Below are positions 10,899-50,322 of a stretch of 64,000 bases of DNA, in pieces. The position numbers were made by a program, and so were the translations under genes. The DNA comes from a virus, in the IMG/VR virus record IMGVR_UViG_3300050494_000042; one strand, given 5' to 3'. Every line of letters begins with the position of its first letter. Within the stretch, counting starts at the first letter, position 1. The notes under the pieces were generated by a model, which was given only the letters and a program-made list of their open reading frames with translations, did no database searches and had not been told where the DNA came from.

Positions 10899-10902
10899 TG
10901 CC

Positions 10903-10931
10903 ACTCTACAACACGCCCGCTTCCCAAGCAA
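10903..10931 (-). promoter_or_regulatory. Array leader promoter
   Basis: TTGCTT-N17-TAGAGT, with the -10 box 4 nt before the first repeat. Confidence 0.7.
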
Positions 10932-11020
10932 ATTATTCCTGTTCCGCGAGCGGTTCCCAATTTGACCCATGATCCTTCACATTGAACCCCTATCAAGCGG
11001 GGGGTCATCGCCTGGAAATC

Positions 11021-12925
11021 CTAGACGCGAGCGGGTACTTTCGCCCCAGAAGCCCCCAAAGCCCTGTTTAACAAGTTCGTGGCGGCATTCACTGCCCGAT
11101 CCCTCTTTTCACCACCACAGGACTCGCAGCGAATCCAGCGGCCCGACTTCGGGTGGTCACACGATTCCCCACACTGACAACACGTCGTCACGATGTTCCT
11201 GGCGGACTCAGTAACTTCGTTCATGTATCTTGTTATCTCGTCCCGGAGTTGGGCACAGGAAGACAGTGCCCGATATCGCTTGTTGACGATATCGTTCCCG
11301 TTCTCGACTTCAGGATTCTCAGCCAACTTGTTCCAGTCAATTTCCGCGATCACCACGTCCTTGTACTGATAGCTCAGGTCAATCGCCACTTTTCGGAAGA
11401 AATCCTTCCGCCAGTTCTTGATCTTGTCCCGCTTGTGTGCCCTCCAGTCGCACAGGTGTTTGCTCTGCAAACGCCCCCCGGTGTACTGATTCCTTCCCGT
11501 GGTTGGGTTGAGTTGGATTCTCCCCCACATTCTTTGGAAGATCTCTTCGTCTCCGGGAATCCGATGATCCTTCCACCACCAAATGAGCCACATGAACCTG
11601 TCGGCACTTCGCCACTGAATCAGAGTCTGGGCACGCTCGGTCCACTCTTCGGGAAGGGGATTCGGGTAGTTCACGAACCAGTCGACCAGTTCAGCCCTTT
11701 CAGCTTCAAACAAGGTATCCCGAATGGACTGGAGGGTGTCAAGATAGGACCACCCCTCCACCAATTCTTTGGGAATACGGACGGTTCCGGTCACACCATC
11801 ATCACCAACCCACTCGGTAACGCGGATTTCCCCATCAATCAGACGCCAACCCAACGCCACCGCGACAGTCCCTTCCTGTGCCCGATCCTGTCCGGCCGGG
11901 TGATACGTCCACGCATCCCGTGCGATGTCGAACTGAACATCCCACCGGTAATGAGTTCCAATCTTCCTGCGGGACAGGTGAACCCACTTCACTTCACCGT
12001 CTTCGGGGAGAGGACGCGACATGACAGCCGGAATCGACGCCATCACCGGCTTTCCCTTTTCGTCCGACGATACACGAAAGTGGATGACGACGTACTTCGG
12101 ATGGGGAGCCGTCAGCGGTGGTTGATACGTCCTTTCGATCCAGCAATTCGTGTTGGGGGTGAAGACATCACAGGTCCGAAGAGATGACCCCCCCACGTGA
12201 GCGAACGTTGGCTTCTTGCTGCGTGGATGGATCTTGGGATTGCCTTTGGAGTCCAAAACTGGCTCCTTCGGGGATGTCTTGTCGGGCTTCCGTTGGAACT
12301 GAACCGAGATAACTTCCTCCCCCCGCCACGACTTGAACTTCGGGGGTGGGCCGGTTCTCTTTACACGTCCCACCACTTGCAGGGAAGTAGCCCAGTACAA
12401 CCCACCTTCCACCGCCGCGTTGCGGGCATCTGCCTTTCGTTGTTCAAACGACTTATCGTTGTCCTTCAGGTCGGCTTTCACCTTCGGGTCGGCAAACGCG
12501 GCGTCCCGCTGATCAGAATAGAACTCCCATGCCTGGGACACCACACGCTTCTGAGCGTTGATTTGCTCCACTAGTTCGGGGTCTGACATCAACTGCCGGT
12601 TCTGACTGTTCGACTGGCTGAGTTCATCCCGAAGCTCCTGGAGGCGTTCCTGCTGCTCCTGGGCTGCGTTGTGGAGGGTCGTCAGAGCCGGAAAGTGTCT
12701 GACCAGGATTGGGTCGATGGCTTCCCTGCGGGCACGCTCGATTTCTACCAACTTGTTCTGGAACTGGTGAGCGAGCTTCATCTGGGTAACTGCCAGGTCG
12801 TGTCCATCGAACCTCTGACGGAGGGCTTTCGTGCCGTCAGGATTGATTTCACGCGGACCGGAAAGGAACCCCCGGCAACCGTAGTTGTACTTGCGAGTCG
12901 GTTTGCTCTTGTTACCGAATGCCAT
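11021..12925 (-). CDS. cas12m: Type V-M (V-U1) Cas12m-like effector, RuvC predicted inactive (634 aa)
   Basis: Motifs recalled from Cas12m: QMKLAHQFQNKLVEIE, GLYWAT, ISVQFQR, TVAVALGWR, QWRSADRF, zinc finger CCQC..CESC, DRAVNAATNLL. Adjacent to the array. The start at 12925 is supported by a GGAG RBS and an upstream promoter. Confidence 0.85.
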   Translation of the reverse strand: MAFGNKSKPTRKYNYGCRGFLSGPREINPDGTKALRQRFDGHDLAVTQMKLAHQFQNKLVEIERARREAIDPILVRHFPALTTLHNAAQEQQERLQELRDELSQSNSQNRQLMSDPELVEQINAQKRVVSQAWEFYSDQRDAAFADPKVKADLKDNDKSFEQRKADARNAAVEGGLYWATSLQVVGRVKRTGPPPKFKSWRGEEVISVQFQRKPDKTSPKEPVLDSKGNPKIHPRSKKPTFAHVGGSSLRTCDVFTPNTNCWIERTYQPPLTAPHPKYVVIHFRVSSDEKGKPVMASIPAVMSRPLPEDGEVKWVHLSRRKIGTHYRWDVQFDIARDAWTYHPAGQDRAQEGTVAVALGWRLIDGEIRVTEWVGDDGVTGTVRIPKELVEGWSYLDTLQSIRDTLFEAERAELVDWFVNYPNPLPEEWTERAQTLIQWRSADRFMWLIWWWKDHRIPGDEEIFQRMWGRIQLNPTTGRNQYTGGRLQSKHLCDWRAHKRDKIKNWRKDFFRKVAIDLSYQYKDVVIAEIDWNKLAENPEVENGNDIVNKRYRALSSCAQLRDEITRYMNEVTESARNIVTTCCQCGESCDHPKSGRWIRCESCGGEKRDRAVNAATNLLNRALGASGAKVPARV

Positions 12926-12953
12926 GCTTGGGAACTCCAGAAGGTGGGAAATC

Positions 12954-13018
12954 TTCGCAGCTACCAACCCGCTGCGATGGGAACAGGCAACCCTAGCATG
13001 AGATTCGTTAAAAGGCAA
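12954..13018 (-). promoter_or_regulatory. cas12m promoter followed by a degenerate repeat in the 5' UTR
   Basis: TTGCCT-N17-TAGGGT (extended TG), then GTTCCCATCGCAGCGGGTTGGTAGCTGCGAA. Confidence 0.75.
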
Positions 13019-13019
13019 A

Positions 13020-48552: not shown

Positions 48553-48692
48553 AGATCTTGGAAGGAATCGAACCTTCCGTCTCTGGCTATTGAACGTGGC
48601 CTGACCGGTACTACGTGCTGCGTTGATAGCAGCATCATTTAACCAGCGGAGCCTAATTACGCCAGCGGGTTCACCAGAACCACCCCAAGAGC
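48553..48692 (-). ncRNA. Second tRNA-like RNA (~140 nt)
   Basis: GCTCTTG/CAAGATC acceptor-like stem (one mismatch), GGTTC-TGGT-GAACC arm, CTGGC...GCCAG enclosing ~73 nt, T-arm GAAGG-TTCGATT-CCTTC. Confidence 0.45.
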
Positions 48693-48833
48693 AACTGCTC
48701 GACTTTGCTAACCATGTGTGACTGTCAAGCAAGCCACACTTGATTCCCTCCGATGACACCAAATAAAGTCAGGACTCGCCAGTCACGCCCGCACCTCAAG
48801 AGATCGCACCTTCTGACCAACGAGTCCTGACAG

Positions 48834-48907
48834 TGGTAACGCCGGGACTCGAACCCGGAACATCAGGGTTAGAAACCCCGTGCTCTATCCATTTGAGCTA
48901 CGCTACC
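48834..48907 (-). tRNA. tRNA-Arg(TCT)
   Basis: Full cloverleaf GGTAGCG...CGTTACC-A, anticodon loop TT-TCT-AA, T loop GTTCGAGT; CCA not encoded. Confidence 0.93.
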
Positions 48908-49032
48908 AATCCGAAGCAATCAAAGTAGTGAGTTCCTGAGTCGCACAGGACGTCTCATCACACCTTCAGGGGCAGATCGCTAGCAACCTTCCCCCGATCC
49001 GGCCGGATAACTTTGACTGCTTCGGCACCACT

Positions 49033-49061
49033 CTTATAGTCCACATTTCCGTGAAAGGCAA
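49033..49061 (-). promoter_or_regulatory. Promoter of the tRNA/ncRNA cluster
   Basis: TTGCCT-N17-TATAAG. Confidence 0.65.
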
Positions 49062-49062
49062 A

Positions 49063-50322
49063 TTAAACGGAACCGTATTTTTTTCTTTTCTTGGCTCCGG
49101 GTTGAGGAGTCTTGCCCCTCCCATTCAGGAAATGCCCCCACTTGCCCGCGTAGGGACCACGAGTCACCTTCTTCTTCCAGACGTACAAGCCATACACCAT
49201 CCGCAGTCGGGTGGGGACGTGGTTGTTGACGGTGTGGGTCAGGGACTTCTCAGTCTTCTTCGGAAACTTGAGTCCCAGAAGCCTGACAAGCTGTGCCTTC
49301 GTGACGCAGGAATCCTTCTGCCCTGCCTCTTTCAGAATACGAACGATTTCGTAGGCCACCCCTTTGGTCGGTACAGGGAGGGGGCTGGCGTCGTAGTGAG
49401 CCACCATCTCATCCCAGGTCATGTCCTTGTTGCCGACACGGTAGACACCCTTCTTCCGCTTCTTCGCCTTCAGTGGTTTGCGGCGGACGTACTTCCGCTT
49501 CGGTTTGGGCTGTGGGGGTGGGATGAGAAGTTCCGGCTCTGTGCAGGTGCCTGAGAACAGTTCATTGATCTCGTCATCGAATTCTGTCTCGATTTCCTCG
49601 ATGACACGATCGACCTCTTCATCGGGGGCTTCAATCACGGAAACCGCTGGATCACGGTTAATATTCAAATTCGTATCCAGCAGTCCTTCCACCCCACTCG
49701 CCCGTTCTTCGCTCCTATCAACCGGGAGCAATCGGTCTGATTCAACCGTCCCTGAAAGAGGAGGAGTCTCCACGACATTCGACCCGTCGTGGTGGGTTTG
49801 AAGAGGAGTTGGTTCCAGTGGAGTGTCCCCCTCCTCCAAAAGATCGGGGATGCCATTCACGACACTGTCACCACTTTCCAAAGCAACGTGATCTTCCGAA
49901 CCATCGGAATTCACCAGAACAACTTCCACAGTCGCCGGGGGAGCTTGGGATTCCCGAACTTCTGGCTCGACGTCGTCAACCACTTCCACCGTCCCTCCTC
50001 CAAATTGATGAGCGTAAATCTTATCGTAAAGGTCCAAATCGTCCTGGGACGACTTCAAGGACTCCACCTGTTCCGGTGATTCCAGGAACTTGGTAATTCC
50101 CGTTCCCTCGTTCACGCGAACGGACAGCTTGCCCACTGGCCACGATCCTGCGTCGGGGACTCCGATGGTTCCCAGAAGTTTCACCAGTTCTGAACGAGAT
50201 ACCAACATCGCTTGCCTTTTGTCGTGACCACGCCGAAGCCGTGTTACGGCAACTAACCCGCCGCAATGGGGTACTAGTATCCTACCCTGTAATACACATA
50301 AGGCAAATTCATTTCGAGTCAC
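49063..50322 (-). CDS. Hypothetical protein (acidic middle, basic C-terminal possible DNA-binding part); real start probably near 50208
   Basis: Long ORF whose annotated 5' end overlaps a promoter and a repeat. Confidence 0.6.
   Translation of the reverse strand: MTRNEFALCVLQGRILVPHCGGLVAVTRLRRGHDKRQAMLVSRSELVKLLGTIGVPDAGSWPVGKLSVRVNEGTGITKFLESPEQVESLKSSQDDLDLYDKIYAHQFGGGTVEVVDDVEPEVRESQAPPATVEVVLVNSDGSEDHVALESGDSVVNGIPDLLEEGDTPLEPTPLQTHHDGSNVVETPPLSGTVESDRLLPVDRSEERASGVEGLLDTNLNINRDPAVSVIEAPDEEVDRVIEEIETEFDDEINELFSGTCTEPELLIPPPQPKPKRKYVRRKPLKAKKRKKGVYRVGNKDMTWDEMVAHYDASPLPVPTKGVAYEIVRILKEAGQKDSCVTKAQLVRLLGLKFPKKTEKSLTHTVNNHVPTRLRMVYGLYVWKKKVTRGPYAGKWGHFLNGRGKTPQPGAKKRKKYGSV
49708..49743 (-). 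repeat. Variant-C repeat embedded in frame
   Basis: CAGACCGATTGCTCCCGGTTGATAGGAG versus ATCCGATTGCTCCCGGTTTGTAGGAG at 54.5 kb. Confidence 0.65.
50245..50306 (-). promoter_or_regulatory. Promoter followed by a degenerate repeat
   Basis: TTGCCT-N16-TAGGAT, then CCCCATTGCGGCGGGTTAGTTGCC. Confidence 0.6.

Follow-up and report, generated by a model that had tools for sequence, protein, structure and literature searches.

Cas12m crRNA scaffolds at the predicted starts of several phage messages suggest that a phage may use its CRISPR protein on its own genes

The window, which is the whole 64-kb stretch of DNA analysed here, is part of a 103.9-kb contig from a soil phage and carries a cas12m gene together with a CRISPR array. 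The features of this locus are the following.

Positions 11021..12925, minus strand: cas12m, 634 aa (PDB 23vw_A Cas12m, E 2e-43; Cas12m2 8hhl, E 1e-4).
Positions 10424..10898, minus strand: CRISPR array; seven 36-nt repeats separated by spacers of 35-42 nt.
Positions 10903..10931, minus strand: promoter-like site of the array leader, TTGCTT-17-TAGAGT.

The effector is homologous to Cas12m and combines a RuvC-like domain with a C-terminal zinc finger whose CxxC...CxxC motif is intact (C582, C585, C600 and C603 are invariant). In the alignment, its RuvC triad reads A-E-A through aspartate-to-alanine changes at RuvC-I and RuvC-III, both of which are kept in 15 phage homologues, and this predicted active site argues against DNA cleavage. 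The array adjoins cas12m downstream on the same strand, the structured part of its repeat abuts the spacer, and the scaffold consists of a stem and a pseudoknot helix, the latter stopping 2-3 nt short of the guide, as expected of type V-M. The ATG of a 93-aa ORF (10395..10114) lies 28 nt after the last repeat. An earlier, sequence-only reading of this DNA placed the start of the array 4 nt after TTGCTT-N17-TAGAGT, and this order can be read directly from the minus strand: TTGCTT (10926-10931), a 17-nt spacer, TAGAGT (10903-10908), 4 nt and repeat 1 (10863-10898), with helix S1 beginning 12 nt past the -10 hexamer.

A covariance model made from the repeats matched 24 solitary copies of the Cas12m crRNA scaffold in the window (23.7-44.8 bits), all 24 in the orientation of the gene that follows. 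The scaffold is a pseudoknot of a 3-bp helix and a 6-7-bp helix. In the alignment, 92.9% of cells are paired, compared with 24.3-46.4% in slid controls, and the covariation score of 0.519 compares with 0.18 for shuffled alignments (0/500 reach 0.519) and at most 0.12 for slid controls. Covariation is present in both helices, and pair 12-21 changes from C-G to G-C in 7 copies. Cas12m2 has the same scaffold architecture, including the G.A pair that closes the guide-side helix (PMC10442227). There are three sequence subtypes, with the loops GGGTTAGTA, CGGTTTGTA and GGGTCRATT. Such variety is what might be seen if the hairpins were a phage RNA element for another factor (an RNase, a terminator or antiterminator, or another RNA-binding protein) that resembles the repeat only by shared descent, and the tie between hairpin and Cas12m is one drawn from sequence. 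We give this explanation the faintest of chances: both Cas12m helices are kept in all subtypes, the array and dispersed copies change together in a relative, relatives that lack cas12m lack scaffolds, and no T-runs follow the hairpins, nor does a terminator precede the downstream ORF. The hairpins alone are not unusually stable (z -1.6 to +0.9).

Several scaffolds stand directly behind a promoter-like site. These units, with one relic and one scaffold on the opposite strand, are listed here.

Positions 12953..13018, minus strand: cas12m unit; TTGCCT-17-TAGGGT (12990-13018), 8 nt, scaffold 12953-12985, 28 nt with GGAG, ATG 12925.
Positions 6299..6364, minus strand: unit after the portal gene; TTGCCA-17-TAGTGT (6336-6364), 8 nt, scaffold 6299-6331, 21 nt with GAGGAG, GTG 6278 of a 170-aa gene.
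Positions 30551..30668, minus strand: two-scaffold unit; TTGCCC-17-TAGAGT (30640-30668), 11 nt, scaffold 30600-30632, about 17 nt, scaffold 30551-30583, 27 nt, ATG 30524 of a 143-aa gene.
Positions 50242..50306, minus strand: unit with TTGCCT-16-TAGGAT (50279-50306), 8 nt, scaffold 50242-50274, 34 nt, ATG 50208 of a 381-aa gene.
Positions 20047..20106, minus strand: relic unit; TTGCCT-17-TAGAGT (20078-20106), then a scaffold relic that keeps the 5' half AATCCGA-ATGCAAC-GGGG and has lost the 3' arm.
Positions 2784..2846, plus strand: TTGCCG (2784-2789) and scaffold 2814-2846 (41.6 bits), 28 nt ahead of ATG 2874 of a small ORF.

The sequence-only reading had proposed promoter-then-repeat units at 12954-13018, 30601-30668, 50245-50306 and 6300-6364, and all four contain an intact scaffold (37.6-42.2 bits, with 30.1 bits for the second scaffold at 30551-30583) that lies 8-11 nt past a -10 hexamer of one family. 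At a further proposed site, 20047-20106, the promoter motif is present and the hairpin is not: the half-relic gave no covariance-model match at E up to 5 and no fold (-3.2 kcal/mol, z +1.7). Conversely, the site put forward as a weaker case, 2801-2845, holds an intact plus-strand scaffold with no TAnnnT -10 hexamer at a workable distance from TTGCCG. The motif TTGCNN-N16-17-TAGNNT, which was refined from these very sites and is thus defined post hoc, occurs 10 times on the gene (minus) strand and twice on the plus strand, against about 0.5 per strand and at most 2 in 200 Markov-1 simulations. Half of the ten minus-strand motifs, namely those of the array leader, cas12m, 6364, 30668 and 50306, are followed by an intact scaffold 8-12 nt on, an adjacency with a binomial P of ~2e-10, or 1.6e-5 when both elements are confined to the 10% of intergenic DNA. 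A generic E. coli-type sigma-70 scan misses these promoter-like sites, which match that consensus at 8/12 positions. The promoter spacers are unrelated to one another in sequence, yet the distance to the scaffold is fixed at 8-12 nt.

In every unit a purine is available 6-8 nt past the -10 hexamer. Transcription from there would place the 5' end 1-5 nt ahead of the first scaffold helix, which corresponds to about -29 to -33 counted from the guide. In the Cas12m2 structure, nucleotides -36 to -30 are not ordered (PMC10442227), so nothing essential should be missing from such an RNA. In its geometry, then, the proposal that transcripts start almost at the hairpin and would be crRNA-like stands. 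The same reading had the guide position often include the ribosome-binding site, which is indeed found there, with the start codon 21-34 nt past the scaffold in six units.

Comparison with relatives shows which of these features are kept. In L001 (68% Cas12m identity), three orthologous units are retained, at cas12m, after the portal gene and before an opposite-strand ORF. The second of these (L001:17172-17239) corresponds to 6299..6364; the third (L001:21369-21401, minus strand) corresponds to the plus-strand scaffold, has TTGCTT-17-TAATGT 12 nt upstream and precedes an ORF that is 58% identical. The L001 scaffolds carry GCC/GGC in place of CCC/GGG, a change that the L001 array shares. At the L001 orthologue of the 20047 site, at 4276, the promoter is present and the scaffold absent. 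In L009 (93% Cas12m identity), the cas12m unit is kept next to an unrelated upstream gene, with homology beginning 3-5 nt before the -35 hexamer; 3/5 substitutions of the region fall in the stem with pairing kept, including one compensatory C-G to T-A change and one C-to-T wobble. A scaffold precedes cas12m in 5/7 lineages and lies in the cas12m leader of the window, L001, L002, L003, L004 and L009. Across 39.6 kb of the syntenic relatives L011 and L012, which lack cas12m, no scaffold was found (the best match, E 0.04, lies opposite the gene strand), and a search for the promoter motif in both found none. The link between the scaffolds and Cas12m is supported by scaffold architecture, covariation, conservation of the units and absence from cas12m-less relatives. 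As a candidate sigma-70-type promoter, the motif has in its favour that it is enriched on the gene strand and kept in L001 and L009; its match to just 8/12 consensus positions and its absence from L011 and L012 count against it. Relatives with 50% Cas12m identity have no dispersed copies within 10 kb of cas12m, so the dispersal is lineage-specific. The array leader geometry is not kept in relatives, and thus the units do not copy an ancestral leader.

The remaining scaffolds occupy gene junctions and coding linkers.

Positions 5684..5766, minus strand: two scaffolds (5734-5766, 5684-5716) between the 170-aa and 231-aa genes, without a promoter motif.
Positions 9656..10138, minus strand: four scaffolds (10106, 10048, 9707, 9656) flanking a 99-aa ORF between the array and the portal gene.
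Positions 15895..15978, minus strand: two in-frame scaffolds in an inter-domain linker of a 719-aa gene.
Positions 17542..19835, minus strand: gene-junction scaffolds 17588, 17542, 18699 and 19803, with the upstream stop codon inside or at the 5' edge of the scaffold.
Positions 27612..27644, minus strand: scaffold near the start of a 1966-aa gene.
Positions 47654..47686, minus strand: weaker scaffold (23.7 bits), 77 nt ahead of a sliding-clamp-like gene.
Positions 49707..49800, minus strand: two in-frame scaffolds in an acidic linker of the 381-aa gene.
Positions 54499..55078, minus strand: gene-junction scaffolds 54499 and 55046, each immediately behind a stop codon, with an ATG following after 14 or 30 nt.

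Four, perhaps five, scaffolds thus lie in frame within coding linkers or gene starts, where control of a leader makes no sense, and this counts against a leader function. These positions direct attention to an explanation in which the scaffolds are mainly structural or evolutionary, as repeat copies spread by recombination that mark the module boundaries of gene cassettes, with any effect on expression being incidental. In its favour, two pairs of scaffolds are read in frame as part of protein linkers, and a strain variant is missing precisely the gene behind scaffold 18699, its junction falling at 18704. The copies at 2814 and 30600 are identical over ~36-38 nt, of which 7 nt belong to the upstream flank. 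Gene content between scaffolds differs between the window and L001, and junctions vary in how many copies they carry. The four-scaffold layout around the 99-aa ORF is found in L001 as well. Pure spread would leave unexplained that both helices are kept with compensatory changes, even between close strains, that co-orientation with genes is strict and start-codon spacing narrow, and that the scaffold follows independent promoters with unrelated spacers at a fixed 8-12 nt. As the main account of the scaffolds, it is rather unlikely.

The reading that we favour, to which we give an even chance, is that the units are phage mRNA leaders with a complete Cas12m crRNA scaffold at or near the 5' end, which would load Cas12m for control at the RNA level, including control of cas12m itself. 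The scaffold at the predicted start of several messages suggests that the phage may use its CRISPR protein on its own genes. At five sites (the array, cas12m and three other genes), transcription would begin 1-5 nt before the scaffold. At ~18 other sites, junction scaffolds would be internal to longer transcripts, and the pre-crRNA cleavage known to occur upstream of the scaffold would give them the same type of 5' end. Scaffold binding and a cut upstream of the scaffold that does not depend on RuvC are established for Cas12m orthologues (PMC11013384, PMC10442227), in which pre-crRNA processing is likewise RuvC-independent (PMC11013384). The nuclease-dead Cas12m most likely binds the leader scaffolds in the way that it binds its crRNAs. 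The ribosome-binding site and start codon follow the scaffold at 11-35 nt, so that bound Cas12m would sit against the translation start and could set the translation and/or stability of the downstream message; at cas12m, such control would form a feedback loop. Promoter activity, start sites, Cas12m binding and the direction of the effect, be it repression or protection, are what we infer here; the sequence, conserved structure, spacing, gene co-orientation, conservation in relatives and co-occurrence with cas12m were observed directly. One point against leader control is that the distal guide is usually flexible in Cas12 binary complexes, so that the ribosome site might stay accessible.

The leaders might instead act as true guides, the next 17-20 nt directing Cas12m to DNA to block transcription, either of their own promoter-proximal DNA in cis or at a host or rival-phage site. 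Cas12m orthologues do silence genes by DNA binding (PMC11013384, PMC10442227), types I and V-A provide examples of crRNA-like RNAs repressing cas promoters (bioRxiv 2023.03.03.530964, 2023.03.10.532045), and array spacers of relatives match their own genomes: spacer 7 of L004 at 37/37 nt (L004:3368-3404) and spacer 1 of L001 at 30/33 nt in the 3' end of cas12m. The leader sequences, however, have no excess of matches elsewhere in ~72 kb of phage (12 compared with 1-14 for shuffled sequences), and the guide position shows no sequence conservation between the window and L001. In their own DNA copy, the leaders are flanked by the scaffold 3' end (CAAC, GAAG, AAAT), which is purine-rich, whereas the PAMs of studied Cas12m proteins are T/C-rich, and a PAM that permitted leader targeting would target the array too. 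Several tandem scaffolds, moreover, leave just ~10-18 nt of "guide". We consider guidance to DNA improbable, and the lack of another target in ~72 kb, the tandem spacing and the purine-rich flank mean that the word "guide" may be misleading for these leaders. Returning to control at the RNA level, its broadest form, which we put forward only tentatively, is that a nuclease-dead Cas12m and its scaffold have been turned into a genome-wide control of the phage's own messages, in which about two dozen mRNAs would be born with, or cut to, a 5' scaffold and Cas12m would serve as a global RNA-binding regulator or processing factor.

Among known systems, the viral solitary repeat units (SRUs) and Racrs (Faure 2019; Camara-Wilpert 2023, PMC10651486) are similar in being single repeat-like units that keep repeat structure in a mobile element, as the 24 model matches do here, and one described example shares its transcript with a protein gene. 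That example, in which the partner is an acr gene (PMC10651486), favours the idea that the scaffolds are decoys like RNA anti-CRISPRs, soaking up host Cas12m or buffering that of the phage. SRUs are by definition without cas association and mimic host repeats to disable host immunity; this phage carries a matching cas12m and array, so that a decoy would disable its own system. Here ~24 copies in 52 kb stand in leaders and at junctions of coding genes at fixed distances from start codons, one of them heading cas12m, unlike the small non-coding RNA layout of Racrs, and decoys are highly improbable. The crRNA-like regulatory RNAs, which include CreR/CreA mini-arrays, scaRNA/tracr-L, viral crlRNAs and the standalone repeats that are common upstream of cas12a in type V-A loci (bioRxiv 2023.03.03.530964, 2023.03.10.532045, 2024.10.29.618823), share a degenerate or solitary repeat beside the effector gene, through which the effector is believed to monitor and restrain its own abundance. 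Their spacer is partly complementary to a promoter elsewhere and acts on DNA, whereas here ~72 kb of phage holds no such target, the place of the "spacer" is taken by the ribosome-binding region of the gene itself, and the scaffold lies within an mRNA leader.

The type V-M comparators MmCas12m, TtCas12m2 and GoCas12m (PMC10442227, PMC11013384) and phage MvCas12m (bioRxiv 10.64898/2026.09.14.751636) share with this phage a homologous effector, 36-nt repeats, a pseudoknotted scaffold and a lack of adaptation genes, and DNA binding without cutting would be expected. The triad is A-E-A in this phage clade and D-E-D, H-D-D or N-D-D in described Cas12m, and the MV-1 report on MvCas12m covers the effector and adjacent array only (bioRxiv 10.64898/2026.09.14.751636). 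Dispersed scaffolds in mRNAs are undescribed for any Cas12m. We know of no Cas12 scaffold used naturally as an mRNA control or processing signal, and, if true, genome-wide message control would be a role for Cas12 outside DNA targeting. Two further parallels, without homology, are functional analogies: phage T4 RegA/RegB, in which one phage protein recognises a short RNA signal next to the ribosome-binding sites of many messages, and synthetic Csy4/Cas12a mRNA-crRNA fusions, in which CRISPR repeats serve to cleave a shared transcript and insulate its genes from one another.

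The minus strand has 10 copies of the refined promoter-like motif TTGCNN-N16-17-TAGNNT and the plus strand has two. Markov-1 sequences, used as the null, lead one to expect 0.5 per strand, with a maximum of 2. Five of the 10 minus-strand copies head an intact scaffold (the repeat-derived hairpin and pseudoknot of the Cas12m crRNA handle), as the sequence-only reading had proposed for the array leader and for units before genes, and each of these five lies immediately 5' of a gene start or, for the leader, of the array. Distances run from the -10 hexamer to the first helix:

10424-10898, minus strand: array of 7 repeats; leader TTGCTT-17-TAGAGT, separated from repeat 1 by 4 nt; 12 nt
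11021-12925, minus strand: cas12m, preceded by the cas12m unit; 8 nt
Unit 6364: promoter and intact scaffold; 8 nt
Unit 50306: promoter and intact scaffold; 8 nt
Unit 30668: promoter and intact scaffold; 11 nt
20047-20106: promoter and half a scaffold
2801-2845: plus-strand scaffold at 2814-2846

The adjacency of promoter and scaffold has a P of ~2e-10; a strict intergenic model raises this to ~1.6e-5. Each -10 hexamer has a purine 6-8 nt 3' of it, and transcripts predicted to start there would begin 1-5 nt before the scaffold. Most other motif copies also appear to have a ribosome-binding site and start codon in their downstream sequence. None of these promoters was picked up by a generic sigma-70 and terminator scan, whose output did not exceed that from shuffles. 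For the last two sites the earlier claim holds in part: at 20047 the promoter stands and the scaffold is rejected, since it fails the covariance model and does not fold, and at 2801-2845 the scaffold stands without a convincing -10 hexamer. That the units are duplicates of one segment was also rejected, since their 16-17-nt promoter spacer sequences are unrelated.

An identical run of ~36-38 nt is shared by 2809-2846 (plus) and 30600-30637 (minus); it includes 7 nt 5' of the scaffold and, in the 30668 unit, the -10 hexamer ends 3-4 nt before it. Two family promoters without a scaffold (14000-14049 and 2700-2745) are followed by short core-deleted scaffold-like strings, GTTCCC plus TGCGAA and TTC plus TAGTGCGAAG, which may be deletion scars. 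Divergent plus-strand promoter-like sites, TTGCTT-16-TAAAGT (30669-30696) and TTGCTT-18-TATAGT (50348-50377), adjoin two of the units back to back; each lies ahead of a small plus-strand ORF, again without a scaffold.

The covariance model, built from 28 copies and searched over the window, matched all 7 repeats of the array plus 24 solitary copies, of which 23 are on the minus strand; the single plus-strand copy precedes a plus-strand ORF. Scaffolds were absent from the last 9 kb of the window and from 7.7 kb beyond its end, and the 8 kb beyond its start gave one weak match only. Two helices form a pseudoknot: one of 3 bp (CCC/GGG, or CCG/CGG in seven copies) and one of 6-7 bp, the sequence of which varies freely. 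Paired cells amount to 92.9%, against 24.3-46.4% with slid partners, and the copies score 0.519 for covariation; shuffles give 0.18, with 0/500 at the observed value, and sliding yields at most 0.12. Thermodynamic folding of the mRNA leaders gave ordinary z-scores; the case for structure stands on covariation, not on stability. Because G-U pairs are confined to the minus-strand reading, for example in copies 17588 and 19803, the data point to a scaffold that acts as RNA. The Cas12m2 crRNA consists of a stem and then a pseudoknot helix that ends 2-3 nt 5' of the guide and is closed by a G.A pair (PMC10442227), and the scaffold of the window has this same layout.

Some copies bear on how the family spread. 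Two-scaffold mini-arrays, in frame and free of stop codons, lie within the disordered linkers of a 719-aa gene (15895-15978) and a 381-aa gene (49707-49800); the former is 62% identical to its orthologue in the related phage locus L001 outside the linker. Among related-strain contigs from public runs, one variant (18292-18703) is missing exactly the gene after scaffold 18699 and has instead 21 nt with a new ribosome site, and in one strain contig scaffolds 10048 and 10106 are collapsed. Given the in-frame linker pairs and the strain without the gene after 18699, some of the copies look as if they arose merely as the family spread.

The 634-aa product of cas12m matches a solved Cas12m chain (23vw_A, E 2e-43) and also Cas12m2 (E 1e-4). 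Its RuvC-I and RuvC-III aspartates align with alanine and the RuvC-II glutamate is retained; the RuvC-I and RuvC-III changes are common to 15 homologues of 37-68% identity. Every Cas12m homologue whose neighborhood was fetched is surrounded by phage-like DNA. The first report of a Cas12m carried by a phage is a preprint of September 2026, which does not mention dispersed repeats (bioRxiv 10.64898/2026.09.14.751636). Neither IMG/VR nor a species-genome collection yielded Cas12m relatives or scaffold copies, and a metagenome scan added only L009 and one duplicate of L004.

The array lies 3' of cas12m and has repeats of 36 nt and spacers of 35-42 nt; its last repeat is followed, after 28 nt, by the ATG of a 93-aa ORF. 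Spacer searches gave no PAM: the arrays of the window and L004 matched no GenBank phage, and an exact search of IMG/VR with three window spacers was negative. Several related strains' contigs carry different spacers in this array (10400-10900), though the phage is without adaptation genes. The string GCTCGCGG, at 10944-10955 and in the array leaders of L002, L004 and L005, lies exactly 45 nt 5' of the first repeat, although the intervening sequence shows no conservation across the four lineages; the string may serve as a leader signal in spacer integration or as a site for a regulator. Its window version has a 22/24-nt copy in a coding region (43442-43465). In the downstream array of L004, spacer 7 (L004:12553-12589) matches the phage's own genome at 37/37 nt (L004:3368-3404), inside a large portal-containing gene, antisense to the mRNA and with a 5' flank, GAGCA, that is not T-rich; this may reflect self-regulation by dead Cas12m. 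In L001 the first array repeat and the stop codon of cas12m overlap, and "spacer" 1 (L001:11907-11941) is an inverted copy (30/33 nt) of the cas12m 3' end (L001:11824-11856), forming either a long hairpin that encloses repeat 1 or a guide, flanked by TTC, that targets the phage itself.

L001, a syntenic 103.7-kb contig with a 68% identical Cas12m, has a short array, junction copies (scaffolds between genes inside longer transcripts) and three promoter-scaffold units, with these spacings:

L001, cas12m: 8 nt
L001, after the portal gene: 10 nt
L001, before a conserved opposite-strand ORF: 12 nt

The short helix of its array-type scaffolds is GCC/GGC or GCG/CGC, a further two-sided change. The L001 array directly adjoins the stop codon of cas12m and has no leader promoter; array leader geometry is not conserved in relatives, and the notion that it was the ancestral template for the units was abandoned. 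In L009, with a 93% identical Cas12m, the upstream gene is unrelated and homology starts 3-5 nt 5' of the -35 hexamer; between that hexamer and the start codon, 3 of 5 substitutions fall in the stem and pairing is kept. A scaffold also lies 5' of cas12m in L002, L003 and L004, and not in L005 and L006. Relatives with ~50% Cas12m identity have arrays and no dispersed copies within 10 kb. L011 and L012, which belong to the same phage group and are syntenic, have no cas12m in the region and contain neither scaffold nor promoter motif in 39.6 kb. Five units thus bear out the promoter-scaffold observation, and in three of the five it is conserved.

The 103,868-nt metagenomic contig that includes the 64-kb window is a phage; sequencing runs from soil and rhizosphere contain it, and no RNA run does. 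Among its gene products are a Mu-type portal, a UvsX-like recombinase, SSB, a split DNA polymerase, a clamp, a DnaB-like helicase and thymidylate synthase, with nearly all genes across 1-61.7 kb on the minus strand. Because more than 150 proteins are related to its 566-aa protein, many on 101-108 kb contigs, the phage belongs to a populous group. Part of the C-terminal region of the portal protein (6342-9542) matches the N/C-domain family of anthrax lethal factor (PF07737, E 1.5e-7), and the next large gene (3101-4948) has a PI3/PI4-kinase-like motif (E 2e-11), both conserved in relatives. A tRNA-Arg with anticodon TCT (48833-48907, minus) sits inside the replication module.

The position of a guide is occupied by a ribosome site, as had been anticipated: in the six units the start codon lies 21-34 nt 3' of the scaffold and the Shine-Dalgarno sequence at about +11 to +27. 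Spacing to the start codon is similar for most junction copies and the last array repeat, and several upstream genes end in TAA at the scaffold 5' edge or in the loop TAG. A PHROGs search assigned no function to the genes behind the units. The proposal that the leaders serve as DNA guides is weakened. Compared with ~72 kb of phage for partial targets, the leader "guides" gave 12 matches against 1-14 for shuffled controls, and so no signal; they are without secondary targets and are not conserved, the flanks of the self-copies are purine-rich, and tandem scaffolds are very short-spaced. Action at the RNA level would need only activities shown for Cas12m orthologues, namely scaffold binding and RuvC-independent cutting 5' of the scaffold (PMC11013384, PMC10442227). 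Because promoter spacing is conserved, the scaffold would need no processing. The putative link between scaffold and Cas12m rests on architecture, co-evolution and co-occurrence.

If Cas12m binds the leaders, it would be the first natural Cas12 effector to control many genes of the virus that encodes it through RNA handles, and a natural counterpart of engineered mRNA-crRNA fusion transcripts. This offers a directly testable model for why phages keep a nuclease-dead Cas12m without adaptation genes, and compact parts (promoter, 32-nt handle, ribosome site) for Cas12m-based circuits. Viral solitary repeats are known directly after promoters and as decoys against host immunity (PMC10651486), repeats 5' of cas12a are common (bioRxiv 2023.03.10.532045, 2023.03.03.530964, 2024.10.29.618823), and regulation of cas genes at the DNA level has been described for crRNA-like RNAs (bioRxiv 2023.03.03.530964, 2023.03.10.532045). 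Since solitary repeats after promoters and upstream of cas12a are thus already known, the novelty lies in fusion to coding messages, copy number and the phage's own dead effector: unlike in viral solitary repeats and crRNA-like RNAs, the repeat is here fused to the 5' end of coding messages, and the phage brings its own dead Cas12m.
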